From UHGV virus genome UHGV-0134334: a DNA stretch of 12,902 nt; one strand, written 5' to 3'. The DNA is from a virus. The notes below the pieces were generated by a model. That model saw only the letters and a list, made by a program, of their open reading frames with translations, made no database searches and was not told the origin of the DNA. Shown here piece by piece: positions 1 through 12,851 of this stretch. A program made the translations under genes and the position numbers. Position 1 is the first letter of the stretch. Every line of letters begins with the position of its first letter.

Positions 1-24
1 CCCTACACGACGCTCTTCCGATCT
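1..24. other. Illumina TruSeq adapter remnant (CCCTACACGACGCTCTTCCGATCT), a sequencing/assembly artifact rather than biology
   Basis: The first 24 nt match the 3' end of the Illumina universal adapter / Read 1 primer exactly. The dsdC reading frame continues immediately after it. Confidence 0.85.
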
Positions 25-767
25 CCCATCGCAAAGTGGAATTAACGCACGAGGGGAAACGTGTTTATTGGGCGCTAAAATCGTCGCTGGATACCCTGAA
101 CCAGGAAATTCTTGATATCAAAAATCAGGAGTTATCGGGAACGTTAACTCTGTATTCCCGGCCCTCTATCGCCCAATGCTGGTTGGTGCCCGCATTAGGT
201 GACTTTACACGCCGGTATCCGTCTATTTCGCTCACCGTGCTCACTGGTAATGACAACGTCAATCTGCAACGTGCCGGAATCGATTTGGCGATCTACTTTG
301 ATGATGCGCCGTCAGCGCAACTCACTCATCACTTTCTGATGGATGAAGAAATCCTGCCAGTATGTAGCCCGGAATACGCTCAAAGACATGCTTTAACCAA
401 CACGGTAATTAACCTGTGTCACTGTACGTTGCTCCATGACAGACAGGCATGGAGCAACGACTCCGGTACGGATGAATGGCATAGTTGGGCGCAACATTAT
501 GCGGTTAATTTGCCGACATCTTCTGGAATTGGCTTTGATCGTTCTGATTTAGCTGTTATTGCCGCGATGAATCATATTGGGGTGGCGATGGGAAGAAAAC
601 GCCTGGTACAAAAAAGGCTTGCCAGTGGTGAGCTCGTCGCGCCGTTTGGCGATATGACGGTGAAATGCCATCAGCATTATTACATCACCACATTACCGGG
701 CAGGCAGTGGCCAAAAATTGAAGCGTTTATTACCTGGCTAAGAGAACAGGTAAAAACCACTTCATAA
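25..767 (+). CDS. dsdC: LysR-family transcriptional regulator DsdC (D-serine deaminase activator), 5'-truncated by the window and adapter
   Basis: The ORF 36..767 translation matches my recollection of the E. coli DsdC C-terminal substrate-binding region. The frame stays open upstream to nt 25 (..SHRKVELTHEGKRVY..), so the GTG at 36 is internal. It lies convergent with torI at about 180 nt, as at the K-12 CPS-53/KplE1 junction. Confidence 0.8.
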
Positions 768-861
768 TGAATAAAACCACGAGTTCCTGGTGTGCCTTAT
801 TCGGCCTGCTAGTTCGAATTTAATTTACGGTTTTTATGTGGTTTTAGGGATAAACACAAGG

Positions 862-877
862 ATGGTGTCCCCTGCAG
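862..877 (-). other. Prophage attR core: 16-bp copy of the argW tRNA 3' end (CTGCAGGGGACACCAT on the minus strand)
   Basis: The minus strand reads CTGCAGGGGACACCAT, which is the end of the T-stem, the acceptor stem and CCA of tRNA-Arg (argW) as I recall it. Upstream tRNA sequence is absent, so this is a partial copy typical of an att core. Host DNA (dsdC) lies on one side and phage DNA (torI) on the other. Confidence 0.6.
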
Positions 878-950
878 ACATCTACTTGAAGCGGCAGGGG
901 ATTGATTGGAATGGTGTTTTTTAGATGTGAGAAATATTTTACCCGCTATT

Positions 951-1151
951 TTACCCATTGGCGCGGCTTAAGAGCTTATTTTTGAATTCACAATGGTCAC
1001 GATATAACCATCTTGCTCGCCCGTGGATAACTTTGGCTTTAGGCAGGTCGCCGGACTTAATCCGGTCGTAGATGAAGGTCTTACCGAAGCCAGTATCAGC
1101 CATGATGAATTTCAAATCAACCAGTGAATCAGGTTGTAGTTCGTGTTGCAT
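951..1151 (-). CDS. torI: Excisionase / recombination directionality factor TorI (KplE1-type Xis)
   Basis: The 66-aa ORF (MQHELQPDSLVDLKFIMADTGFGKTFIYDRIKSGDLPKAKVIHGRARWLY..) matches E. coli TorI in size and position, directly inside attR and convergent with dsdC. An RBS (GGAGA) sits 9 nt upstream of the ATG. Confidence 0.8.
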   Translation of the reverse strand: MQHELQPDSLVDLKFIMADTGFGKTFIYDRIKSGDLPKAKVIHGRARWLYRDHCEFKNKLLSRANG

Positions 1152-1192
1152 GAGTGCTATCTCCGAATAGGGAATCGAACCTGCAAATCAGG

Positions 1193-1217
1193 CAATAAAA
1201 AACCGCCATCAGGCGGC
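1193..1217 (-). terminator. Rho-independent terminator (minus strand) between the small early-left ORF and torI
   Basis: Minus-strand hairpin GCCGCC-UGAU-GGCGG followed by UUUUUUAUU. It overlaps the stop codon of the upstream small ORF. Confidence 0.5.
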
Positions 1218-1376
1218 TTGGTGTTCTTTCAGTTCTTCAATTCGAATATTGGTTACGTCTGCATGTGCTATCTGCGCCCATATCATCCAGTGGTCATAGC
1301 AGTCGTTGAAGTCCTCTGCTTCGATACGAGCGATTTCCTCTTTCATTCTCGTAGTTAAGCGGATTGATGACATATT
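1209..1376 (-). CDS. Small hypothetical early-left protein (55 aa from the internal ATG; the longest ORF extends to 1442)
   Basis: ORF 1209..1442. The internal ATG at 1376 is preceded by GAGAGG with 7-nt spacing (..GAGAGGAATTAATATGTCATCA..). No recognisable family. Confidence 0.4.
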   Translation of the reverse strand, partial: NMSSIRLTTRMKEEIARIEAEDFNDCYDHWMIWAQIAHADVTNIRIEELKEHQAA

Positions 1377-1438
1377 AATTCCTCTCAAATAAGTGGTTTG
1401 CTGCCAAAACAATGAACCATCCGGAAATTCCAGATAGT

Positions 1439-1666
1439 TCATAATTCACTCTTCAATACTTCCAACTTACTAATCGCCGATAGATATCCGCGCTGATAGG
1501 GAATCATCATTCCTTCGAGCTTGCCACTTCTTAACTCCTCCCTGAGCAATTGTATTGCTTGATCAATAACCTCTGCCTTAGCGTCCTTTATGGCTTGCTT
1601 GCGGGGCTTTGCTTTCTGCTTTGGCAGATTTCTCAAGCATGATGGAATGTATGTCTGATTCATCAC
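1439..1666 (-). CDS. Hypothetical early-left protein (75 aa)
   Basis: ORF directly downstream of and abutting the N-like gene in the same orientation. Basic, with predicted coiled coil. No recognisable family. Confidence 0.45.
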   Translation of the reverse strand: MMNQTYIPSCLRNLPKQKAKPRKQAIKDAKAEVIDQAIQLLREELRSGKLEGMMIPYQRGYLSAISKLEVLKSEL

Positions 1667-2050
1667 TTACCTCGCTGTCAGTTGCTTTGATTTCCGGTAG
1701 CCTGCCGCGTAAATGGCTACGTTTGGAAGACATACACCAGTTTCTGGTTGCTTATGTCCAAACTCATTCGCGTACACAATGGCCGCTCTCTCCAGATTGC
1801 GTCTGTATTCTTTCTGTTGCCAGATCACGTCCTGTGCCATGAACTTAATTGGCTTAGCGTCTTCTATGCGCTCAGGCGTTTCGTGAGTACCTTTAGCCTG
1901 AATCTGCGCTCTGCTTAGAGTAGGGCGGTGTAATACTTCTGAACTTATTGCTTCTTCGCGGGCCAGTACGCCGTTAGCTAATGCCTTTGCCTTTAAACGC
2001 TCACGACGACGAGAACGTGAATTGCCTTTGAACTGAGTTCTGCGTGTCAT
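1667..2050 (-). CDS. N-type transcription antitermination protein, P22 gp24-like
   Basis: The 127-aa ORF has an arginine-rich N-terminal motif (..GNSRSRRRERLKAK..) and a C-terminus (..VAIYAAGYRKSKQLTAR) closely resembling the P22 gene 24 product (..ALYAAGHRKSKQITAR). It sits downstream of pL with a GACAA-loop boxB in its leader. Confidence 0.75.
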   Translation of the reverse strand: MTRRTQFKGNSRSRRRERLKAKALANGVLAREEAISSEVLHRPTLSRAQIQAKGTHETPERIEDAKPIKFMAQDVIWQQKEYRRNLERAAIVYANEFGHKQPETGVCLPNVAIYAAGYRKSKQLTAR

Positions 2051-2311
2051 ATAGACCTCCTGATGAACTTTGGTGGTGTGGTGGCTGGTAGTCTAGCTCC
2101 AGCTTGTTGAGTCTCATTCGGAGGGGTATAACCGGCACCCCAGCGATTTTTCCATGCGACAACGTGCGCGTTATGGCGGCCTTATCGCCCGCGGCTCCCC
2201 ATCTCGTCCACGCTATTGCTAGCGTTGGGAGCGCTTCACCGCTCAACAGTAGGTAAGCACTTGCCAGTGACTAGCTGGCTTCACCACACCCCAAAGTTCA
2301 CTTTGGTTATT

Positions 2312-2326
2312 GCGCTTTGTCAGCGC
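2312..2326 (-). promoter_or_regulatory. nutL boxB RNA hairpin, P22 type (GCGCU-GACAA-AGCGC)
   Basis: Minus strand reads GCGCTGACAAAGCGC: a 5-bp stem with a GACAA pentaloop, the P22-type boxB, in the pL leader about 65 nt downstream of the predicted pL start. Confidence 0.6.
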
Positions 2327-2387
2327 CGTAGATTCTTGCTTGAATCGTTGTATATTCACCGCCCTGGTGAGTAGTGCGTCCTGCTGA

Positions 2388-2457
2388 TGTGTTTATTATC
2401 ACCGCCAGTGGTATTTATGTCAACACCGCCAGAGATAATTTATCACCGCAGATGGTT
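2388..2457 (-). promoter_or_regulatory. Lambda-type OL1-OL2-OL3 operators with the pL promoter
   Basis: Exact lambda operator sequences: TATCACCGCCAGTGGTA (2397-2413), CAACACCGCCAGAGATA (2421-2437) and TATCACCGCAGATGGTT (2441-2457). On the minus strand the -35 TTGACA and -10 GATAAT direct transcription leftward toward N. Confidence 0.85.
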
Positions 2458-2610
2458 ATCTGTATGTTTTTTATATATATTTATTTTTTGCAGGGGTGTG
2501 TGGCTTGGGAGGTGATCGAGAGATCTGAATTGCGATGTTTAGTGAGTTGTATCTATTAATTTTCAAATAAATACAATTGGTTATGTGTTATTGGGTGAAG
2601 GGGATCGTGA

Positions 2611-2640
2611 GGCAAAGAAAACCCGGCGCTGAGGCCGGGT
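2611..2640 (-). terminator. Rho-independent terminator ending the cI-ORF145-ORF123 operon
   Basis: Minus-strand hairpin ACCCGGC-CUCAGC-GCCGGGU followed by UUUCUUUG, 7 nt after the ORF123 stop. Confidence 0.5.
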
Positions 2641-2646
2641 TGTGTG

Positions 2647-3018
2647 TTACTTAAGAACGAGTCCGTTTAAGGCATCAAGGATTTTGGAAACATAACTTCC
2701 AAAAATGTAGGCGCAAAATGCGAACACGAAACTGACAACGACCGCAGATGCCTTGATGGTGATTTTTGCTGAGCTAATGCTTGTCTCAATACCTGACAGA
2801 CGAGAATCTACAGATTTTATATCTGACTTTACTTCAGCGAGATCGCGCTTGATGTATTCAACATCAGACTCTAGCTTTGCAACTCTAGCCTCAAGCATGT
2901 TACCTCCGCCGTTTCCTCCACCATGCCGTGAGTATGCATCATCAGTGGAATAGTGTCCAATTGGGCGAGATATGTTTTGATTTGGACGAAGCTGAGCAAC
3001 CTTGTTATCTAAACTCAT
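2647..3018 (-). CDS. Small membrane protein with a Gly-rich motif (HGGGNGGGN), a coiled coil and a C-terminal transmembrane anchor; accessory gene occupying the position lambda uses for rexB
   Basis: 123-aa ORF with a hydrophobic C-terminal helix (..ASAVVVSFVFAFCAYIFGSYV..), last gene of the cI operon. A strong internal SD (GGAGGT) precedes the in-frame ATG at 2898, giving an alternative 83-aa form. Paralogous to ORF 9198..9533. Confidence 0.55.
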   Translation of the reverse strand: MSLDNKVAQLRPNQNISRPIGHYSTDDAYSRHGGGNGGGNMLEARVAKLESDVEYIKRDLAEVKSDIKSVDSRLSGIETSISSAKITIKASAVVVSFVFAFCAYIFGSYVSKILDALNGLVLK

Positions 3019-3442
3019 CGCGAACTGATCCTGTTATCTTCACGTCAAAAAACGAACTTTTTACATCAATTACTTCGCCTTTATCAGGATTAACCAGTGA
3101 TGCTCTGACTTCGAATATCCCAGGCTTGATAATTTTCACCCTTGGGAAGTTAATTCTCATAGAAGTTGATACGATGGTTTCTCCATCGTTGGCTTCTGCT
3201 ACCGTAAAAAACTTATGGTTGGAGTACAGTTTTGTGTCAATTGGTATCGGTATTTCTTGAGCATTGAAAACCTCAATGCCTATGGAATATTTTTTTGTAG
3301 CCTTAAGGCCGATAAAAAAAGCGCCAAATGATAGATCCACTTCATGGGAGTCTTTATCCATTTCATAGATAAGAACTGGAGTTACTGGGTTGCCTTCATC
3401 CATCGCAATCGGAATGATATAAGAAATACGTTCTTTAATCAT
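3005..3442 (-). CDS. Hypothetical soluble protein (145 aa); accessory gene occupying the position lambda uses for rexA
   Basis: ORF starts 8 nt downstream of the cI stop and overlaps ORF123 by 14 nt. AT-rich relative to cI. No transmembrane segment and no recognisable family. Confidence 0.55.
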   Translation of the reverse strand: MIKERISYIIPIAMDEGNPVTPVLIYEMDKDSHEVDLSFGAFFIGLKATKKYSIGIEVFNAQEIPIPIDTKLYSNHKFFTVAEANDGETIVSTSMRINFPRVKIIKPGIFEVRASLVNPDKGEVIDVKSSFFDVKITGSVRDEFR

Positions 3443-3449
3443 TTACGTG

Positions 3450-4166
<717 letters not shown>

Positions 4167-4173
4167 TTAAATC

Positions 4174-4239
4174 TATCACCGCAAGGGATAAATATCTAAC
4201 ACCGTGCGTGTTGACTATTTTACCTCTGGCGGTGATAAT
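4174..4239. promoter_or_regulatory. Lambda OR3-OR2-OR1 operators with divergent pRM and pR promoters
   Basis: TATCACCGCAAGGGATA (OR3), TAACACCGTGCGTGTTG (OR2) and TACCTCTGGCGGTGATA (OR1), with pR -35 TTGACT and -10 GATAAT. The cro RBS (TAAGGAGGT) follows. Confidence 0.9.
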
Positions 4240-4254
4240 GGTTGCATGTACTAA

Positions 4255-4464
<210 letters not shown>

Positions 4465-4502
4465 GTAACACCGCTATTTTCACAATGGACATTCGTCCTA
4501 CG

Positions 4503-4517
4503 TCGCTGACAAAGCGA
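4503..4517 (+). promoter_or_regulatory. nutR boxB hairpin, P22 type (UCGCU-GACAA-AGCGA)
   Basis: A 5-bp stem with GACAA pentaloop between cro and cII. A boxA-like CGCTATTTT lies upstream at about 4471-4479. It is not the lambda nutR sequence. Confidence 0.55.
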
Positions 4518-4602
4518 GTCCCAATATATCTGACCAACTAAGGCCATATGCGTTTCCACGCATACCTTTCAACTAACTATTCACTATTGGAAATATTAAG
4601 AA

Positions 4603-4899
4603 ATGACACAAGCAAGTTACAGCAAGCCAACACAGCGAGAAATTGATCGCGCTGAAACTGATTTACTCATCAACCTGTCAACGCTTACCCAGCGCGGTCT
4701 GGCAAAGATGATTGGCTGTCATGAATCGAAGATAAGCAGAACGGACTGGAGGTTTATTGCTTCGGTCTTGTGTGCTTTTGGAATGGCATCAGACATCAGT
4801 CCGATTAGTAGGGCTTTTAAGTATGCGCTTGATGAAATCACAAAGAAAAAATCCCCGGCCGCCACCGAGGATTTTAAGCAAATTGATATGCAATTCTGA
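4603..4899 (+). CDS. cII: CII-family transcriptional activator (divergent from lambda CII)
   Basis: 98-aa ORF with a helix-turn-helix region and a C-terminus (..KKKSPAATEDFKQIDMQF) paralleling lambda CII (..KKRPAATERSEQIQMEF), in the syntenic position after cro and nutR. Confidence 0.75.
   Translation: MTQASYSKPTQREIDRAETDLLINLSTLTQRGLAKMIGCHESKISRTDWRFIASVLCAFGMASDISPISRAFKYALDEITKKKSPAATEDFKQIDMQF
4612..4625 (-). promoter_or_regulatory. CII-binding site (TTGC-N6-TTGC) of a pRE-like promoter reading leftward
   Basis: Plus strand GCAAGTTACAGCAA gives TTGCTGTAACTTGC on the minus strand, a direct TTGC repeat with 6-nt spacing at the 5' end of the cII-like gene, as for lambda pRE. A candidate -10 (TAATAT) lies downstream on the minus strand. 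Confidence 0.5.
4855..4881 (-). terminator. tO-like terminator of a possible OOP-type antisense RNA at the cII 3' end
   Basis: Minus-strand hairpin CCUCGG-UGGCGG-CCGGGG followed by AUUUUUUU, encoded by the cII codons for KKSPAATE, the same place as the lambda oop terminator. Confidence 0.4.
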
Positions 4900-4931
4900 G
4901 GTAATTACTGGATCAACCCACAGGAGTCATT

Positions 4932-5078
4932 ATGACAAAACAACTCAGTCCTTACCAGGACAAAATTCACAAACACATACTACGTGATCGCTTCCTGTCC
5001 AGCTTCAAGCAGCCTGGTCGATTCCGGGCTGAGTTGGAAAAAGTGAAGCTGATGCAGAAGGAGAAAGGTCATGAGTAA
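4932..5078 (+). CDS. Small hypothetical protein (48 aa) translationally coupled to the O-like gene
   Basis: ATG at 4932 preceded by AGGAG. Its stop overlaps the start of the next gene (ATGAGTAA). Below the length cutoff of the supplied ORF track. Confidence 0.35.
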
Positions 5079-5970
5079 CATATCTAATCTAGCCGAAGCC
5101 AGAGAGGCCAGAAGGCTACAACAACCGCATCAAAGCAGCGGTAAGGGGTATGCCTTGCTGCACCGTAAAATTATGGATGTGCCGTTTTACAAGGACGCAG
5201 AAGCTGCGCATCTGTGGGTTCACTTAATCCTCAAAGCAAAGCATACGCCTGAGTATGTAATGACTGACGCAGGAGAAATTCTGGTAGGCAGAGGGAAGCT
5301 ACTTGGCGGTAGAAACTCTCTGGCGTTTGAAACAGGACTCAAACCAGATCGCGTTCAGTACCTGCTTAGAAAGTTCAAAAAACTCGGCATGATTGACTGG
5401 GTTTCACACGGTAGATTCTCAGTTTTCTCGGTAGAGAAATATGACGATTATCAGTCAAATTTTGTACCAGCAGATTACCAGCAAATTACCACCTCAAAGC
5501 CAGAAATACCAATGCCTGTAAGCAATACTGTACCAGCAGATTACCAGCAAATTACCACAGATAAAGAATATAATAATATTATCTCTAATACTGACGTATT
5601 AGAGAGTGCCACAGCAGACAAAAAGTCTGACAAGAAAAAACCTTCCGTTAGCTGTCAGGATATTGTCGATGCTTACCACGAAATCCTTCCTGAAGCGCCA
5701 AAAATCCGCGCACTGAATGACAAGCGTAAAAACCAGATCCGAACGTTCTGGCGCAAAGCCGGAGTGATAACCCGCCAGCTTGACGGGCATGGGTTCACGA
5801 TGCAGGACTGGAGAAATTATTTGAGCTACGTAGGCGAAAATTGCCGATGGATGTTCGAAGAACGCCCAAACCATCAACGCGGAACCGTCTGGCACAAAAA
5901 GGGATTTGATTTCCTGCTTAACGACAATACCTACCTGAAAGTTCGTGAGGGTGAACACGATGACCGATAA
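5071..5970 (+). CDS. Replication initiator, lambda O / P22 gp18-like, containing the origin iterons
   Basis: 299-aa ORF in the position of O/gene 18, after cII and before a DnaB-like helicase gene. It has internal iterons plus an AT-rich tract, and a strong RBS (AAGGAG). Confidence 0.6.
5464..5595. repeat. Candidate replication origin: four 12-bp iterons (CAGCAGATTACC / CAGCAAATTACC, twice) followed by an AT-rich tract
   Basis: The 29-bp segment GTACCAGCAGATTACCAGCAAATTACCAC occurs at 5464-5492 and again at 5530-5558, each holding two 12-mer sub-repeats. AGATAAAGAATATAATAATATTATCTCTAATA follows. The arrangement matches ori-lambda, which lies inside O. Confidence 0.55.
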
Positions 5971-6376
5971 TTTTTATGCGCCGCCCCATAGCATCGAGGC
6001 AGAGCAGGCGGTGATTGGTGGATTGCTTCTGGATGATGACAGCAGTGAGCGCGTCCAGAAAGTTCTGGCGATGCTGAAGCCTGATTCATTTTACAGCCGA
6101 CCACACAAAATCCTTTTCGAAGAGATAACCAGAATGCACCGGGAGCAAAAGCCAGTAGATGGCCTGACGCTTTTCGATGAACTGGAGCGTAAATCGTTAA
6201 CGGCGTCTGTTGGCGGTTTTGCTTATATCGCTGAGATCGCAAAGAACACGCCAAGCGCCGCAAACATCGTTGCCTATGCAATGCAGGTTCGCGAAACCGC
6301 AATGGAACGCTACGCCATCAACCGCATGACTGAAGCGACGGAATTGCTCTACGCGAAGGTGAGCAAGTGCAGGTAA
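5960..6376 (+). pseudogene. DnaB-family replicative helicase (P22 gene 12-like), N-terminal domain only, 3'-truncated
   Basis: The translation (..PPHSIEAEQAVIGGLLLDD..FYSRPHKILFEEI..SVGGFAYIAEIAKNTPSAANIVAYAMQVRE..) aligns with the N-terminal domain of E. coli DnaB. The ORF ends after about 138 aa with no Walker A or RecA-like domain. Start ATG at 5960 with RBS GAGGG. Confidence 0.7.
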
Positions 6377-6729
6377 AACGCACTGATGGAATATTCGGCA
6401 CACTTGGTAACTATGTTAGCCAATTATCTAACGGCAAGATGCTGAATAATGAGCAAGTCCAGGACTTAATCAACACCTCAAAACTGATGGCAAATACTGA
6501 AGGCCAAAAGTTTAATCAGCAAATGGATGATTATCTTTCAACTTATGGAGATTCTCTCCCCAGCGGACTAACTAAGCAATTGCAATCCAGAAAAGCCAAG
6601 CTGTATGAAGATATTCAGCAGCCTGCACAACAACAGAGCAATAACCAACAACCGACAAATACCCAACAGCAGCAGAGTCAATCCGGATCATATACCTCAA
6701 AATCAGGCATTCAATTTACGGTGGAATGA
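6367..6729 (+). CDS. Hypothetical Gln-rich protein, possibly the 3' remnant of a P22 gp20-like ejection protein gene
   Basis: 120-aa ORF beginning at the deletion junction and translationally coupled (ATGA overlap) to the downstream 708-aa ejection-protein-like gene. The assignment is by synteny only. Confidence 0.35.
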
Positions 6730-8852
6730 TGAAAGTAACTGCAAACGGTAAGACATTTACCTTCCCTGACGGTACGAGCACGGAAGATATTGGCTCCGCC
6801 ATTGATGAGTATTTTGCTGGTCAGGCTGTTCAGCAACAAACAGTTAATCAGGCCAATAATGAACAAGCACGTGAAGAACCATCATTGATGCAACAAGCTG
6901 GCGATTGGCTCACTGGTGGTCAAAGTGCAGGGCAAATTGCAGAACAGGCTGGTCGTGGTCTGGTAAACATACCATTTGACGTATTGCAGGGTGGCGCAAG
7001 TCTGATTAATGCAATCAGTCAGGGGCTTGGTGGGCCAAAAGTATTGGATGATGTCTATCGTCCAGTCGATCGACCGACAGACCCTTACGCGCAAGCCGGT
7101 GAAACAATTGGTGGGTATCTCCTGCCAATTGGCACAGCGGCAAAAGCTGCTGGAGCGCCAGCAAAGCTCGCTGGAGATATCGGTTCCGCAGGAAACATGA
7201 TTGCAGGTTCTCTTGCTGATGCTGCAAATCAGGAGGGCGACTTTGCACAAAATGCTGCCATTAACGGTGGTATCAATATTGGTGCTCAAGGCGTTCTTTC
7301 AGGTGTCGGGCGCGTTATTGCGCCAAGGGTTTCACAGGCTCTTGGTGGTGCAGCACTGAATTCTGCTAATGATGTTTCCAGGATGGCAAAGTCAGGTGCT
7401 GGGCGTCGGTCAATTGCCAGTCAGGCCGCTAATGTGTCCGAAGATGTAGCAAAAGCGGCTGAGTCTGCTGGAATTGATATAAACGCATTAACACCAGGAA
7501 TGCGATCTGGAAGTCGTGGAATTGCACAAGCTGAAGGCGCATTGGCATCAACACCAGGAATTGTTCAGGACGCCCATCAGGCAGCATTTAACGAAATATC
7601 ATCAAAGTTAAGTCGAAACCTTGATGAATTTGGGGCCGCATCTGGAACGGCATCAGAAAAAAGTGCGGCTATAAAACAAAGGATTCTTCAAAATCTTGAT
7701 CAGATGAAGGATGCCGAGCGCGCGGCATGGGATGACGTGCGGTCAACAATGCCAAATCAAAAAGCAAGAATGCTAAATGGTAATGCCGTTATTCAGGCAG
7801 AGCGATCTGCTGGCATACCACTTACTCCTGAAATGAAACAGTTTGTTCAGGCAAACAATCAAGGTGGAGTAACATTTGATGGCATGAAAGCATGGAGAGC
7901 GAAATTTGCTGATGCGGAGCAAAAATATAAGCGTAGCGGAGAGGCAAATGCGGCAAGGAGAGCAGGGGAAATACGCCGGGCAATTACTGATGATATGCGC
8001 ACAATGGCGGAAAACGGCGGATTTCTTGATGACTGGCAGAAAGCTAATGATCTGTCTAAAGCGAGGTTATCAGCACAAGAGAGTGCAGAGTCTGTTTTCG
8101 GGCGTGATTTGGCAACAGATGCACTGATTACGAATGGAGTAAAATCCCTTCAATCATCGTCAGCTAAAGGTCTTAATGGTCCTGCTGGGTTCCATTCTAT
8201 GATCCGCGCGCTGCCAGAATCAGAGCGTGTTCCTGCTATATCATCAATGTTGCAAGATGCTATCTCGCATGGTGTGCGTGGTGGCAAAGCTGATGCAGCA
8301 GGAATTAACCATATCGCAGGGATACTTACCCCACAAAATGTAAAAGCCATTAGCAGATATTCCTCAGATCTCGGAAGAATTGCTGATGCATATGGCACTC
8401 TTGCAAGAGCGGCAGTGAAACCTCAGCAGTATATTGAAAGAACAGGGAGAACTGCCAATGTACTACGCGATCTGGATGCTGGTTTATCCAACGTCACATC
8501 AACAGTGTTAAATGCAATTGCCAACTCAACATCAGGTGCCATTGTTGGTGGCGCTGGAGGGGGTATTGCAGGCGCTGCCGCGGGTGCTTTAGTTGGCGCC
8601 GGGTTAAAAGGTGCTGTATCTAAAATTGCCACCACGCGTAGCGGTCGATATGCGATAGAGAAAGCAGTTCAGGAAGCCACGAAAGCAGTAAGAGCTGGCG
8701 GAAGTAAAGAAGCATTAGCGGCGGCGGAACGCAGATTTATGGCAAATAAAGCCGCCGTAAAAGCAATACGTGATGCAGTTGGAAACGAAGAGTTCAATCG
8801 CTTAGCGAGGGCTGGCATTGTAGCGTCGCTAAGCGGAATAGCACAGGAGTAA
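6726..8852 (+). CDS. DNA ejection/injection (E-protein) family protein, P22 gp16-like
   Basis: 708-aa Ala/Gly-rich protein with a Gly/Ala-rich C-terminal segment (..[24 protein letters not shown]..). It sits immediately upstream of the immI-like region, as gene 16 does in P22-like genomes. The assignment is by synteny and composition, not by a verified alignment. Confidence 0.45.
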
Positions 8853-9176
8853 TTAATCATCCATGGATGGATTGAGCTTATCTCGTGTTGATGTGGCGAT
8901 TTGTCCTACATTCCTAAGCCAAGATTTCAAATCCTTGATATTGTCATTGATTTCATGAATATCTTCTTTTTTTAGTCTGTTAATATTATTCTCAATAATT
9001 TCAATGGATTGCTCAATATCAGATATAGTGAATGATAGTTTGTTCTTCTCATCTTTTATTGAGTTTTTAAGTGCTTCGTTCTCAGTCTTGAGGTCAGATA
9101 TCTTTTGTTTTAAAGATGCCAGTTGGTACTGAACCACAATGAGTGCGATAGCTATCACGATAACTGTTGTATACAC
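8853..9176 (-). CDS. Small membrane protein with an N-terminal transmembrane helix and coiled coil (107 aa); last gene of the mnt operon
   Basis: Hydrophobic N-terminus (MYTTVIVIAIALIVVQYQ) followed by heptad-rich sequence. RBS GGAG 7 nt upstream. AT-rich. Its stop abuts the stop of the convergent ejection-protein gene (TAATTA). Confidence 0.55.
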   Translation of the reverse strand: MYTTVIVIAIALIVVQYQLASLKQKISDLKTENEALKNSIKDEKNKLSFTISDIEQSIEIIENNINRLKKEDIHEINDNIKDLKSWLRNVGQIATSTRDKLNPSMDD

Positions 9177-9197
9177 ACAAATCTCCTTAGTTAGTAG

Positions 9198-9533
9198 CTA
9201 TTTGGTAACCAAGGCAATAAACAGCGGAGCAAGGATTGCAGATATCATGAGGGCGATAAGCCACTTCTGATTCTCGTCCATCTTATCTGCTAGGCGACGC
9301 TCCATTCCGTGCATGTCGCCACGGATGCCAATCAACTCTTTTCTAGTTTCTGATATTAGCTTTTCTTGGTTGGCGGCAATCGTTTCAATGCGGGTCATTC
9401 TACTGTTCATATCTGATCCTCCTCCATAGCCACCTCCATGTGCTGGCTCTTCTGAGTCTTCAATTCCGATGGGGGCAAATTCGCTATTCGGAAAAGGATT
9501 GTCAGCATCGTAAGCCAACTTCAACTTAGACAT
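9198..9533 (-). CDS. Small membrane protein with a Gly-rich motif (HGGGYGGGS), coiled coil and C-terminal transmembrane anchor; paralog of ORF 2647..3018
   Basis: 111-aa ORF with a C-terminal hydrophobic helix (..WLIALMISAILAPLFIALV..) and shared PIG..HGGGxGGG..M motifs with ORF123. The Gly codons (GGAGGAGGA) form an SD before the in-frame ATG. Overlaps the upstream ORF by 8 nt. Confidence 0.55.
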   Translation of the reverse strand: MSKLKLAYDADNPFPNSEFAPIGIEDSEEPAHGGGYGGGSDMNSRMTRIETIAANQEKLISETRKELIGIRGDMHGMERRLADKMDENQKWLIALMISAILAPLFIALVTK

Positions 9534-9891
9534 TGCTGTTTTTCTCCCTTAGATACCAGCTTAACACAACACCTGTGTTGTACTGCATAATGTATCCGCA
9601 ATGCTTGCAAATTACATGATAAGAGTAATTTATTGGGTTGAATGATTCATCTTCGTTTTTTATATATTCACCATAATGGGCATGCCTACCCATGATGTCT
9701 TTTCCATTATCCTGATTTACAAATTGAACTTGAGGGACAACCATTTCAGACTGCCCGCACATTGGGCATTCGTCTGGAACACCTTTAGCTCTCAAGAAAG
9801 AGTCGAGAACCTTTGTAGTTATAGACGATAGCGCCTTGCGATATTCAGCCTCTCGCAGTTGATCGTCTGAGTATCCTGAATTGTCACTCAT
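9526..9891 (-). CDS. Zinc-ribbon protein (two CxxC pairs), translationally coupled to mnt (121 aa)
   Basis: CPMCGQ and CKHCGY motifs about 50 aa apart. The start codon overlaps the mnt stop (ATGA). No recognisable family. Confidence 0.55.
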   Translation of the reverse strand: MSDNSGYSDDQLREAEYRKALSSITTKVLDSFLRAKGVPDECPMCGQSEMVVPQVQFVNQDNGKDIMGRHAHYGEYIKNEDESFNPINYSYHVICKHCGYIMQYNTGVVLSWYLREKNSNV

Positions 9892-10139
9892 TTTTCATCC
9901 TTACCATACATGGTCTTTAGCGTCTCAACATCGCGTTCAAGATCTATCAATCGTGATGCTATAGTTGCAAGGTCTAGTGCTTGAATGTGTTTATTTTTTT
10001 CGGTCCACGCTTCAAGTGCCGCGACCATCTCAGCATTTAATGAACGAGAATTAGCCTCAGCCAGTTCAATAAGACGTTCCTTTATCTCTACAGGAAGCCT
10101 CAGATTCACTTGAGGGTTTTTGTACTTACGATCAGACAT
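9888..10139 (-). CDS. mnt: Mnt-like ribbon-helix-helix repressor (Arc/MetJ superfamily)
   Basis: The 83-aa ORF is the same length as P22 Mnt. Its N-terminal region (..NLRLPVEIKERLIELAEANSRSLNAEMVAAL..) resembles the Mnt/Arc RHH motif and it has a C-terminal coiled coil. It is divergent from arc-ant. Confidence 0.7.
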   Translation of the reverse strand: MSDRKYKNPQVNLRLPVEIKERLIELAEANSRSLNAEMVAALEAWTEKNKHIQALDLATIASRLIDLERDVETLKTMYGKDEK

Positions 10140-10174
10140 CGGCGCATCCTGAATAATTTTTTACCACAGGATAT

Positions 10175-10214
10175 GTAGGTATCTATTGACTATCAATGCG
10201 TACCTAAATACTAT
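10175..10214. promoter_or_regulatory. Divergent mnt/arc-ant promoter region with an imperfect palindromic operator
   Basis: Palindrome GTAGGTA-tct-ATTGA-cta-TCAAT-gcg-TACCTA (10175-10207). It overlaps a plus-strand -35 TTGACT (10186-10191) and -10 TACTAT (10209-10214), 17-bp spacer, upstream of arc. Confidence 0.45.
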
Positions 10215-10244
10215 GTATGCGTACCACATACAACGGAGGATGCA

Positions 10245-10385
10245 ATGAAGGTAAAAACACTGCGTATGCCAGAGAAGCTAGAAAAAATTCTTGAAGAAAA
10301 AGCAAAGGAAGAGTGCCGCTCATTCAGCGCAGAAGTAATTAAACGGGTGCTGGACAGCCTGAGGAGAGAGGGGATAACGGTGTGA
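10245..10385 (+). CDS. arc: Arc-like ribbon-helix-helix repressor (46 aa)
   Basis: Translation MKVKTLRMPEKLEKILEEKAKEECRSFSAEVIKRVLDSLRREGITV resembles P22 Arc (..FNLRWPREVLDLVRKVAEENGRSVNSEIYQRVMESFKKEG..). Strong RBS GGAGGA 4 nt upstream. Immediately upstream of ant. Below the ORF-track length cutoff. Confidence 0.65.
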   Translation: MKVKTLRMPEKLEKILEEKAKEECRSFSAEVIKRVLDSLRREGITV

Positions 10386-10418
10386 TTCGCTTGGATGCGG
10401 CAAAGAAATCAAAACAGT

Positions 10419-10450
10419 GAAGCCCCAACTGCGGGAACAGTCAGGGCTTC
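10419..10450. other. Stable hairpin in the arc-ant intergenic region; possible sar-like antisense RNA terminator or attenuator
   Basis: GAAGCCC-(18 nt)-GGGCTTC inverted repeat. On the minus strand it is followed by a T-rich tract (ACTGTTTTGATTTCTTTG). Confidence 0.3.
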
Positions 10451-10483
10451 GGTATCGTAAAACCACGCATAGGAATTAACGAC

Positions 10484-11407
10484 ATGAAAAGTATAGCAAC
10501 AGCAGTATCTACTATCAATGTACCATTCCACGGCGCAGAGCTTTATGTTGTCAATCACAACGGCGAACCGTATACCCCAATGAAACCTATCGTTGAGGGA
10601 ATGGGGCTAGACTGGAAATCTCAACATAAGAAGATTTCTCAACGCTTCTCGAAGGGTATGGTGGAAATCACCATACCTTCTGCCGGTGGGGTGCAAGCCA
10701 TGATTTGTATGGCTTTACGAAAATTGGCAGCTTGGTTGAACAGCATCAGTCCTAACAAAGTCCGCCCTGAAATCCGCGATAAGGTAATCCAGTATCAGGA
10801 AGAGTGTGACGATGTGCTCTACGACTACTGGACTAAAGGCCATGTAGTTAACCCACGCAAAGCTAAAAAGGCGTTGCCGGGTAAAATCACCACTGAACAG
10901 CAGGAAGCCATTAAACAACTCGTCATGAGTCGCGGTCAGTCTCTGCCAAAAGAAAAACAGGCGAAGGCAATGATTACCATGTGGTCGTCACTGAAATCTC
11001 ATTTTGGGTGTTCATACAAAGAAATCAGCGATGAGCAGTTTACCGAAGCTCTGTCACTTGCAGCTCGCGTTCCGCTTGAAGGCGAGTTAATCGGCAAACA
11101 AGAGAAGAAAGCAAACGAGCTTTCTGCAAAAGAAGCAAACAGCCTTGTATGGTTATGGGATTATGCCAACCGCTCACAGGCATTATTCCGCGAACTGTAT
11201 CCGGCGCTAAAACAAATTCAATCGAACTATTCAGGCAGATGCTACGACTACGGTCATGAGTTCTCGTATGTTATCGGAATGGCAAGAGACGTTTTAATCA
11301 ATCGCACACGAGATGTTGATATTAATGAGCCAGACGGACCAACGAATCTTTCCGCATGGATGAGACTTAAGAATAAAGAATTACCTCCTTCAGTACATAA
11401 CTACTGA
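10484..11407 (+). CDS. ant: Antirepressor Ant (P22 Ant-like N-terminal domain)
   Basis: The 307-aa ORF has an N-terminus (..VPFHGAELYVVNHNGEPYTPMKPIVEGMGLDWKSQHKKI..) typical of phage antirepressor N-terminal domains. It follows arc and is opposed by mnt, the P22 immI arrangement. Confidence 0.8.
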   Translation: MKSIATAVSTINVPFHGAELYVVNHNGEPYTPMKPIVEGMGLDWKSQHKKISQRFSKGMVEITIPSAGGVQAMICMALRKLAAWLNSISPNKVRPEIRDKVIQYQEECDDVLYDYWTKGHVVNPRKAKKALPGKITTEQQEAIKQLVMSRGQSLPKEKQAKAMITMWSSLKSHFGCSYKEISDEQFTEALSLAARVPLEGELIGKQEKKANELSAKEANSLVWLWDYANRSQALFRELYPALKQIQSNYSGRCYDYGHEFSYVIGMARDVLINRTRDVDINEPDGPTNLSAWMRLKNKELPPSVHNY

Positions 11408-11425
11408 CAGATAACCAACGCAACG

Positions 11426-11450
11426 ACCCAGCTTCGGCTGGGTTTTTTTA
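11426..11450 (+). terminator. Rho-independent terminator after ant
   Basis: ACCCAGC-TTCG-GCTGGGT hairpin followed by TTTTTTT. Confidence 0.8.
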
Positions 11451-11507
11451 TGCCCAAAATTCACCGTGGCCACGCTGCGGCGATTCATTGTATCTGGAGC
11501 AAATTAA

Positions 11508-12851
11508 ATGACAGACATTACAGCCAATGTGATCGTATCGATGCCTTCGCAACTTTTCACTATGGCGCGTTCTTTTAAAGCCGTAGCCAATGGCAAAATT
11601 TATATCGGTAAAATTGACACTGACCCGGTAAATCCAGAAAACCAGATTCAGGTTTATATGGAGAATGAAGACGGCTCTCACGTTCCTGTTTCGCAACCAA
11701 TCATCATTAACGCTGCTGGTTACCCTGTATATAACGGACAGATTGCCAAGTTCGTTACTGTGCAAGGCCATTCTATGGCTGTTTATGATGCATACGGTGC
11801 GCAGCAGTTCTATTTTCCTAATGTGCTGAAGTATGACCCTGATCAATTAAGACAGGAGCTATCTAAGCAGACTGATGGTTATTTTTTTAACCTTCCTCAA
11901 GGTGGTGTACTACATGATGCAATAAAGTATGTAACACCAGAAATGTATATCAATACATCTTCAGATATTACATCTGCTATACAAAGCGCATTTGACAATG
12001 GAAATGTGATTGATATGTCAGGTAGAGACTGGACTCTTGAGAGAACAATCCATGTCGGTGATGGCACTGAAATAAAGTTAGGCGCATCAACAATTACATG
12101 TCAACTTGGTTCTAAACCTGCTTTTGACTTTAGAGGAACAGATAAAGGACTCTTGGTCACAGGAGGTAAGTTTATTGGTAATTGCTCTGCAGTATTTTAT
12201 TTCCAAGGGACTACTGCTTTCCCTTCTCAATCAGGTCACTATGCAAGAAAAATAAGAATATACGGCACAGATGCTACTTCAGATACGGATGAGATAATTG
12301 ATTTCATCTATATGAAGGACGCTGTAAGGCAAGTTTTTATTGATTCATGTTATGCATATGTAAAAAACGGCATTACTGCAAGCGGAAAATGTGTGGAGGT
12401 GAAAGTCCAAAAAAGCATATTCAACTCAGGAACTTCCGATCAAAGTTCTTCTAGAATAAGTCTAAATTCACCGTCAGGAGCAAGTTATTACAACGAAGGT
12501 TGGCATTTTAGTGATTGTACAATTGATGGAGTTGGAAAATCATTTAATGTTACCGATATATATTCGTTAACCATCAATGGAGGATTTATCGGTGGTGAGG
12601 TTGCGTTTGGACAGCCAATAACAACACATTGCCGTGAGATCGTACTCGGTGGTGGATTAATCATGAAAGGGCGTGTTACTTTCACGCCAACCGTACAATA
12701 TGACTACAGGGCCAACATATCTCCTTCTCTTATGTTTGGTAATGGTGGAGTTGGAAACGTGGTCCTTAATGCAGGTGCTTCAGGCATCAACGTTAGCACA
12801 AAACTTGAAAGTTCTGGTGTTTCAGGAGGAACTGGCGTTATTGTTAATTGA
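11508..12851 (+). CDS. Tailspike protein: P22 gp9-like N-terminal head-binding domain plus a divergent beta-helix receptor-binding domain; probably 3'-truncated by IS insertion
   Basis: The N-terminal roughly 110 aa ([63 protein letters not shown]) align closely with the P22 tailspike head-binding domain. Its stop codon TGA is formed by the first bases of an IS3-like terminal repeat (TGATCC..). At 447 aa it is short for a tailspike. Confidence 0.75.

Follow-up and report, generated by a model that had tools for sequence, protein, structure and literature searches.

A zinc-ribbon/XhlA-like gene pair and hkcB between gene 16 and mnt of a P22-like prophage: candidates for a role in phage exclusion

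In P22, the interval between gene 16 and the repressor gene mnt holds sieA (PMC10883804, PMC2629481), and the epsilon34 genome paper named this interval the variable 'ant moron' (PMC2629481). The SieA protein, of 162-164 amino acids (aa), bears the motif FxRYPxEAxxFNK and spans the membrane with three or four segments; it targets the C-terminal regions of gp16 and gp20 (PMC10883804). HK97 has its exclusion moron, gp15, in the slot ahead of the tape-measure gene (PMC3594210), the P2 int-att interval is a minor defence hotspot (bioRxiv 10.64898/2026.02.27.708500), and XhlA, a membrane protein of Bacillus subtilis PBSX, is needed, with the holin XhlB and an endolysin, for lysis (PMC5589764). Here we analyze the gene 16-mnt interval of UHGV virus genome UHGV-0134334, a stretch of 12,902 nucleotides (nt) that we refer to as the window. 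We conclude that this interval forms the arm of the immI 'ant moron' on the Mnt side, to the left, and that two accessory modules, independent of each other, lie in it. Module A (9198-9891) is a mobile, conserved cassette of two genes, encoding a zinc-ribbon protein and a tail-anchored XhlA-like protein, that is attached to the 3' ends of prophage-expressed operons and for which phage exclusion is a possible function. Module B (8853-9176) is the gene hkcB.

A conserved two-gene cassette behind mnt

A preliminary description of this DNA had claimed that four same-strand open reading frames (ORFs), joined by overlaps or short gaps, lie in a slot equivalent to that of sieA. We found all four on the minus strand at 8853-10139, and the tract does sit between gene 16 and mnt of a P22-like prophage. 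The genes, in the order of transcription, are:

9888-10139, minus strand: mnt, the ribbon-helix-helix (RHH) maintenance repressor of immI, 83 aa
9526-9891, minus strand: gene for a zinc-ribbon protein with four cysteines, 121 aa
9198-9533, minus strand: gene for a tail-anchored XhlA-like protein, 111 aa
8853-9176, minus strand: hkcB, encoding an N-anchored protein, 107 aa, with a GTG start, converging on the gene 16 stop codon

The junctions agree with those described earlier: mnt and the zinc-ribbon gene overlap in an ATGA, the zinc-ribbon and 111-aa genes overlap by 8 nt (ATGTCTAA), and 21 nt that include TAAGGAG separate the 111-aa gene from the 107-aa gene. Every start among the four genes has a Shine-Dalgarno sequence. 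Cysteine alignment and hydropathy likewise confirmed the double CxxC of the first downstream protein, the C-terminal tail anchor of the second and the N-terminal anchor of the third. All three downstream proteins match PHROG families of unassigned function (E 1e-29 to 1e-58), and these matches, together with the low ratio of nonsynonymous to synonymous substitution rates (dN/dS) of the zinc-ribbon and 111-aa genes, indicate that the three downstream ORFs are real genes and did not arise by chance. A promoter and terminator scan of the window returned no convincing terminator or internal promoter from mnt to the end of hkcB. As no such element separates the four genes, a single transcript from the mnt promoter (Pmnt) is plausible and is the simplest inference for the window; we also infer translational coupling within the tract and its expression in the lysogen.

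The 121-aa zinc-ribbon protein is cytoplasmic by composition and has no hydrophobic segment. Its two CxxC pairs (C42/C45 and C95/C98) are invariant in 20 homologs of 24-58% identity, as are P53 and W112. Word-seeded searches retrieved just 5-9 homologous proteins, so that an exhaustive HMMER search was required; this yielded 44 representatives at E<1e-3 among 1.84 billion proteins. As the family occurs in 2 of 72,556 plasmid records, we regard it as essentially restricted to phages. The AlphaFold model of the protein (predicted local distance difference test score, pLDDT, 90.8) has a pair of helices at the N-terminus, a beta region of the zinc-ribbon type and a helix at the C-terminus, and its comparison with solved and viral predicted structures gave nothing beyond generic zinc ribbons. 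Public gene calls omit the zinc-ribbon ORF in Klebsiella prophages, where it sits in an apparent 464-nt 'gap'; loci in which the zinc-ribbon or XhlA-like genes are miscalled are L005/L006 (4652-5011), L022 (3338-3658) and L016 (4341-4781).

The 111-aa protein is predicted by AlphaFold to be disordered over residues 1-39, which include a Gly-rich linker (HGGGYGGGSDM), and helical over residues 40-110. Its heptad a/d positions are 71% hydrophobic, and its predicted membrane anchor (hydropathy 2.63, residues 92-110) stops one residue short of the C-terminus. The protein matches phrog_6324 (E 7e-29), with weak matches to holin and hemolysin PHROGs in addition. Within the partner family, 8 of 14 members match the Pfam XhlA family PF10779 at E<0.01 (best 1.9e-6), and Klebsiella homologs are named 'hemolysin XhlA family protein' at NCBI; we therefore describe the 111-aa protein as weakly and distantly XhlA-like by sequence. 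Gene calls for the Klebsiella XhlA-like proteins begin too far downstream, so that the annotated products have 70-72 aa or 118 aa and miss the Gly-rich N-terminal part, and many of the short 'XhlA family' entries in databases are probably truncated gene calls.

We observed that the two genes travel together. We collected 22 zinc-ribbon loci, representing ~11 lineages of 24-85% identity; at 21 of these the next ORF overlaps the zinc-ribbon gene by 4-29 nt or starts within 3 nt of it and encodes a C-terminal anchor, and a Gly run is present in 20 of the 21 partner ORFs. Locus L020 (554-904), part of a P2-like element, holds a lone zinc-ribbon gene, with ogr, gpD and a toxin gene of the hok/gef type nearby. 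In P22-like prophages the pair is fused to the 3' end of mnt, beside several different gp16 types. P2/186-like prophages (24-30% identity) carry it abutting or overlapping the int stop codon, in the C-int operon at the prophage end. In lambdoid siphoviruses (SPN3UB gp24/gp25, S107 orf25/26, ENT1 and Klebsiella prophages) it follows arc/ant or KilA-N genes and lies ahead of the tape-measure gene. The Pmnt operon of P22 is active in the lysogen, and the C-int operon of P2 is transcribed from Pc in lysogens. The neighbors of the pair are mnt, int, or ant and tail genes, and in none of the 21 loci is it part of a lysis cassette.

The proportion of nonsynonymous differences (pN) is 0.08-0.17 for the pair, compared with 0.44 for the adjoining mnt alleles. 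The dN/dS values (0.05-0.14 in the zinc-ribbon gene, 0.12-0.15 in the 111-aa gene, 0.05-0.15 over the two) point to strong purifying selection on both genes.

The tract had also been presented as one operon unit, and this was not borne out. Using blastn, we resolved it into three mosaic blocks with boundaries at 9192/9197 and ~9901-9928, at which three modules meet: mnt/arc, the cassette of the zinc-ribbon and 111-aa genes, and hkcB with gene 16. The gene 16-hkcB block (6691/6873-9192) is 98% identical to epsilon34, 97.8% to CUS-3 and 92.9% to SEN22, and it has a 75.6% match to HK620 that reaches 9017. The cassette block (~9197-9928) is 78-81% identical to another set of P22-like prophages, and the mnt-arc block (9901-10385) is 94% identical to CUS-3. 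The junctions, as set by the blastn boundaries, are:

9192-9197: mosaic junction between gene 16-hkcB and the zinc-ribbon cassette
9901-9928: mosaic junction within the 3' end of mnt

At the first junction, homology to CUS-3, epsilon34 and SEN22 stops at 9192, and homology to the cassette-bearing prophage loci L007, L010, L011, L013 and L014 starts at 9170-9210. At the second, cassette homology extends to 9928 in L010, L011, L013 and L014, and homology to CUS-3 mnt runs from 9901, with the last ~13 mnt codons carried along with the zinc-ribbon cassette.

The content of the hkcB-mnt interval varies from phage to phage. In CUS-3 (L001, 3000-4575) and UTI89 the slot contains the gene of a YafO-family toxin, a further gene and a duplicate RHH gene resembling mnt; SEN22 (L002, 3119-3973) has a HicA/YcfA-like toxin gene on the opposite strand; and in epsilon34 the slot is filled by gp15, encoded on the other strand, with a terminator after it.

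The window encodes a second protein built like the 111-aa protein, in the position that rexA and rexB occupy behind a lambda-type cI:

3450-4163, minus strand: lambda-type cI
3005-3442, minus strand: gene for a 145-aa soluble protein without cysteines, directly downstream of cI (rexA-equivalent position)
2647-3018, minus strand: gene for a 123-aa protein with a Gly-rich linker, a coiled coil and a C-terminal anchor (rexB-equivalent position)

The Gly-rich linker of the 123-aa protein (HGGGNGGGNM; 'HGGGNGGGNMLEARVAKLE...') makes its build like that of the 111-aa protein; the two are 23% identical over their full length (BLASTP, E 0.005), and the 123-aa protein matches both phrog_6324, the family of the 111-aa protein (E 7e-15), and phrog_6136 (E 4e-46). 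All its heptad a/d positions are hydrophobic, and its predicted anchor (hydropathy 2.11) spans residues 92-110. The 145-aa gene overlaps the 123-aa gene by 14 nt, and its product matches phrog_5893 (E 9e-65). We considered the 145-aa protein as a relative of the zinc-ribbon protein and rejected this, as the two lack similarity. Related immunity regions occur between cI and the Timm terminator in HK244, HK542 and mEp332; HK244 has there a homolog of the 145-aa protein and a second gene that, at 206 aa, is longer than the 123-aa gene of the window.

hkcB, the immI switch and the surrounding prophage

The 107-aa gene of Module B is the gene already named hkcB in HK620, CUS-3 and epsilon34, and the epsilon34 genome paper lists it as a gene of unknown function (PMC2629481). 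A literature search under the name hkcB returned unrelated acronyms only. Its product matches phrog_5962 over residues 1-107 (E 1e-58) and is 94-99% identical to epsilon34 gp14, CUS-3 hkcB and SEN22 gp15, and 56% identical to HK620 hkcB. A predicted N-terminal anchor (hydropathy peak 2.20, residues 4-22) is followed by a coiled-coil-like region, and in Pfam coiled-coil families were matched only below threshold.

We found that hkcB always abuts gene 16, in convergent orientation, in epsilon34, CUS-3, SEN22 and HK620. The gene it faces in the window is:

6726-8852, plus strand: gene 16, ejection/DNA-transfer protein of the HK620/epsilon34/CUS-3 type, 708 aa (phrog_770, E 2e-232)

Every hkcB-bearing phage that we compared shares the gp16 C-terminus '...GIVASLSG(I/M)AQE', and loci with other gp16 types are without hkcB and have unrelated small genes or a 33-codon stub instead. 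Most loci that hold the zinc-ribbon pair likewise have no hkcB. What stands in the hkcB position is a 122-aa protein gene with a YobH-like peptide gene in loci L007-L009 (4796-5381), a gene for a 103-aa N-anchored protein in L013 (4369-4680), and a 33-codon hkcB-like stub in L011 (1439-1540). Because SieA acts on the C-termini of gp16 and gp20, the linkage of hkcB to one gp16 type suggests, by analogy, that hkcB is a candidate exclusion protein matched to its own type of gene 16. By BLASTP, gp16 of CUS-3 (L001, 494-2653) and gp16 of HK620 (L023, 2780-4948) are 77% identical; PMC10883804 gives an identity of only 26% for this pair, which may stem from different gene assignments.

In the window and in CUS-3, hkcB lies 21-22 nt behind a gene on the same strand and so probably depends on read-through, whereas in HK620 and epsilon34 it stands alone with its neighbor gene on the opposite strand; the mnt gene of epsilon34 has its own terminator.

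The preliminary description had called the RHH gene an Mnt repressor gene, and this identity is genuine: residues 7-50 match the Pfam Arc family PF03869 at 40.2 bits, against a cut-off of 20.4. The complete immI layout is present around it, with mnt divergent from arc-ant, overlapping promoters and the sar antisense RNA:

10196 to 10168, minus strand: Pmnt, from the promoter scan
10186 to 10214, plus strand: Pant, from the promoter scan, divergent from and overlapping Pmnt
10172-10210: 39-bp imperfect palindrome, TATGTAGGTATCTATTGA / TCAATGCGTACCTAAATA, centered between Pmnt and Pant, from an inverted-repeat search
10214-10232: second palindrome, TGTATG-N7-CATACA
10245-10385, plus strand: arc repressor gene, 46 aa (Pfam Arc, 31.9 bits against a cut-off of 20.4)
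10416-10482, minus strand: sar antisense RNA (Rfam RF00262, 76.6 bits against a gathering score of 43, E 1e-15)
10450 to 10419, minus strand: sar terminator, from the terminator scan
10518 to 10490, minus strand: Psar-like promoter, from the promoter scan
10484-11407, plus strand: ant antirepressor gene, 307 aa (Pfam P22_AR_N, E 2e-45; P22_AR_C, E 4e-28)

By analogy with P22 immI, the two palindromes are probably the Mnt and Arc operators.

The window as a whole contains a P22-like prophage of the Lederbergvirus type, or what remains of such a prophage, that adjoins the host gene dsdC. From left to right, the small early genes are followed by the lambda-type cI, the two genes in the rexA/rexB position, cro, a cII-like gene, the replication gene O and a truncated dnaB; past a junction near 6350 come the 3' end of gene 20, gene 16, the four-gene tract, arc, ant and the tailspike gene. 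The remaining features are:

within 36-1151: dsdC, a host gene of the LysR family, followed directly by the AlpA/excisionase-like gene
951-1151, minus strand: AlpA/excisionase-like gene, 66 aa, with the phage early genes next to it
5945-6376: truncated dnaB-like ORF, running directly into the last ~100 codons of gene 20
6367-6729: 3' remnant of gene 20
11508-12851: tailspike gene, in which homology to related prophages ends at ~11825-11865

There is no integrase gene between dsdC and the phage early genes (36-1151). Positions 24-6351 and 6350-11850 match different E. coli prophage regions, and the whole window is contiguous in 0 complete E. coli genomes. The tailspike match stops where the head-binding domain ends, and the receptor-binding part differs; this break is the usual tailspike mosaicism.

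Candidate functions and how they compare

We tentatively favor, as a possibility somewhat short of an even chance, that the pair is a phage-exclusion system with Rex-like logic, in which the zinc-ribbon protein is the sensor or regulator and its partner a single-helix membrane effector. We are led to this reading by the conservation of the pairing, in three unrelated phage architectures and at known positions of defence genes; by strong purifying selection beside divergent mnt alleles and the cassette's own mosaic boundaries; and by the XhlA-like character of the partner, the protein of the same build in the rexB slot and the phage-restricted zinc-ribbon family. For hkcB it draws on the single homology block that hkcB and gene 16 form.

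If the pair does act in exclusion, phages would attach the cassette behind an mnt or C-int operon, or place it in the moron slot of a siphovirus tail region. The zinc-ribbon protein may hold its partner, or sense, at the cytoplasmic face of the membrane, and upon infection would release or activate the XhlA-like protein, which could then oligomerize via its coiled coil and either compromise the membrane (abortive infection) or block the entry site. Module B would supply a separate N-anchored protein in the P22 sieA position and is a candidate for exclusion in its own right. A broader version of this proposal is that the pair is an undescribed anti-phage system spreading horizontally among P22-like, P2-like and lambdoid phages of Enterobacteriaceae; that a zinc-ribbon sensor with a new fold arrangement controls a suicide or gate effector of the holin-accessory type; and that hkcB replaces SieA, matched to ejection proteins of the HK620/epsilon34 type, so that two membrane-based exclusion mechanisms reside in one Mnt-controlled operon. 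We regard this combined proposal as doubtful.

Several observations weigh against an exclusion function. All functions assigned here are drawn from gene anatomy and genomic context, and the term 'sensor' is an assignment by elimination, as the zinc-ribbon fold gave no informative match. The 111-aa protein scores 20.7 bits against Pfam XhlA PF10779, below the cut-off of 34.7; lysis is the sole documented role of XhlA, and a literature search joining XhlA and defence found no paper with both. Neither PADLOC-DB 2.0.0 nor NCBIfam has a real match for the three downstream proteins, the hits in both being noise from coiled coils or zinc fingers (in PADLOC, hkcB against SMC-like models, E at least 6e-4, and the zinc-ribbon protein against a Cas10 fragment, E 0.012). 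The remote-homology and structure checks that the preliminary description had proposed returned no known defence or toxin model and no informative fold match. Locus L020 has the zinc-ribbon gene without a membrane partner. In siphoviruses the pair is oriented as late genes are, and promoter scans of the gap before it gave no promoter-like sites above background. All four genes in this order are a rare combination, present in 9 of 5426 complete E. coli genomes; natural E. coli lysogens with the cassette include GPEC60-33-648, ISHS7, GN04171 and PK12. Finally, the window appears to be a prophage with a large deletion at ~6350, in which the nin, lysis and head genes have gone, or possibly an assembly chimera.

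Of the other explanations, entry-blocking superinfection exclusion is the one to which we give the most weight, although we think it rather unlikely. Here the 111-aa protein, with the zinc-ribbon protein as chaperone or stabilizer, and/or hkcB would stop the conduit formed by ejection or tape-measure proteins and the cell would survive, as with SieA and gp15. The slots are the same as those of P22 sieA and HK97-like gp15, all known examples are small inner-membrane proteins, and hkcB is linked to the 3' end of one type of gene 16, as would fit the action of SieA on the C-terminal parts of gp16 and gp20 (PMC10883804). Known blockers, however, are single genes, so that a conserved cytoplasmic zinc-ribbon partner is left unexplained; the predicted tail-anchored topology puts almost none of the 111-aa protein in the periplasm; and the pair occurs in phages with three injection machineries, which argues against recognition of one conduit. 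We consider it quite unlikely that the pair has a different role in lysogenic conversion, for instance in envelope stress or in host interaction, or is cargo of weak phenotype in slots that tolerate insertions. The 'ant moron' and the P2 and tail morons do hold many unrelated genes of unknown function (PMC2629481), the place of hkcB can be taken by a YobH-like peptide or by small proteins unrelated to it, and the rarity of the full arrangement noted above would fit as well. Against this stand the low dN/dS of the pair genes, the pairing and overlap kept down to 24-30% identity in three phage groups, and the phage restriction of the zinc-ribbon family, which argues for a selected, phage-related role.

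A toxin-antitoxin or addiction system, with either Mnt as the antitoxin or the zinc-ribbon protein as antitoxin of a toxic XhlA-like protein that stabilizes the prophage, is in our estimate improbable. Related phages keep such genes in this slot (YafO-family in CUS-3/UTI89, HicA/YcfA-like in SEN22), the zinc-ribbon gene lies upstream of and overlaps the gene of a potentially membrane-damaging protein, and the MqsA antitoxin, through its zinc-ribbon domain, is among the best Foldseek matches in the PDB, which are non-significant (E 0.08); the TM-score of that likeness is only 0.23. The Mnt version, which the preliminary description had raised, we reject: the pair also follows int or ant/KilA-N genes with no RHH gene directly upstream, and it sits beside highly diverged mnt alleles (pN 0.44), with no co-inheritance. 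Mnt is, moreover, the genuine repressor of an immI region that also has Pant, arc, sar and ant, and searches of Pfam, NCBIfam and PADLOC found no toxin domain in the three downstream proteins and no toxin or antitoxin family matched. Just as improbable, in our view, is an accessory role in lysis or the life cycle, in which the XhlA-like protein would tune the holin or lysis timing or the pair would bias the lysogeny-lysis switch, as has lately been suggested for RexA/RexB. PBSX lysis does need XhlA with XhlB and endolysin (PMC5589764), the 111-aa protein has its weak holin PHROG matches, the siphovirus pair is co-oriented with late genes, and RexA/RexB reportedly influence the lambda switch. 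Yet among the loci examined the pair occupies mnt, C-int and tail-moron positions and no lysis cassette. The P22-like and P2-like operons are, by established knowledge, active in lysogens, where a holin helper would be harmful or useless, and the window prophage apparently has no lysis genes yet retains ORFs that are intact.

The genes themselves were already known as database hypothetical proteins, as was the variability of the slot; the zinc-ribbon/XhlA-like pair across three phage architectures, its kinship with the protein in the rexB slot and the co-inheritance of hkcB and gene 16 appear to be new. Prophage accessory slots have been productive for new anti-phage systems, of which those with membrane-acting effectors are among the least understood, and three 'hypothetical proteins' become here a testable unit, with four invariant cysteines on one side and a Gly linker, coiled coil and tail anchor on the other. 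If the pair does exclude phages, the XhlA family of holin-associated lysis proteins would be tied to defence, and the pair would provide a compact model of a cytoplasmic sensor controlling a single-helix membrane effector. The linkage of hkcB to gene 16 raises the question of whether P22-like phages without sieA possess another exclusion protein, adapted to the ejection proteins that they themselves encode. The analysis also corrects the annotation of several Klebsiella prophage records, in which the zinc-ribbon ORF is uncalled and the start of its partner miscalled.

Comparison with known systems

P22 sieA, like the genes described here, lies between gene 16 and mnt on the mnt strand, and its product is a small inner-membrane protein that the prophage expresses (PMC10883804). 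SieA types A-C are defined by about 160-200 aa, three or four transmembrane segments and FxRYPxEAxxFNK (PMC10883804). We rejected membership of this family for the three downstream proteins, which are 107, 111 and 121 aa long, the first two with a single hydrophobic segment each and the third with none, and whose translations lack RYP; the PHROG families that they match are also other than that of SieA. The preliminary description had named structural or SieA-family identity as one of the findings that would count against its proposal, and none of the three is structural or SieA-like.

HK97 gp15 is a small inner-membrane protein that the prophage expresses from a moron located between the tail chaperone and tape-measure genes (PMC3594210), and the siphovirus pair (SPN3UB, S107, ENT1, Klebsiella) shares this position. 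The two differ in that gp15 is a single YebO-related gene, whereas the pair consists of two genes, one of which encodes a cytoplasmic protein.

The 111-aa protein resembles XhlA (PBSX, PF10779) in being small and in having a coiled coil and a C-terminal membrane helix, and it has in addition a disordered N-terminus and a Gly-rich linker. The partner of its gene is the zinc-ribbon gene, not a holin and an endolysin as for XhlA, and it lies in repressor or moron operons.

The likeness to RexA/RexB is that of a two-gene module in a prophage repressor operon that combines a soluble cytoplasmic protein with an inner-membrane protein, where co-transcription of our pair is predicted from the gene arrangement. 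Such a module is found after mnt, in the C-int operon and, as the rex-slot pair, after cI. In Pfam, PHROGs, NCBIfam and PADLOC we found no Rex family matches. RexB is polytopic in the membrane, and RexA binds DNA and is much larger (PMC11077077); the pair differs from them in its effector with a single C-terminal anchor and in its 121-aa zinc-ribbon partner. What the two systems share is layout only, and in the window the RexA/RexB position downstream of cI is itself taken by a protein built like the 111-aa protein, with a soluble partner of its own.

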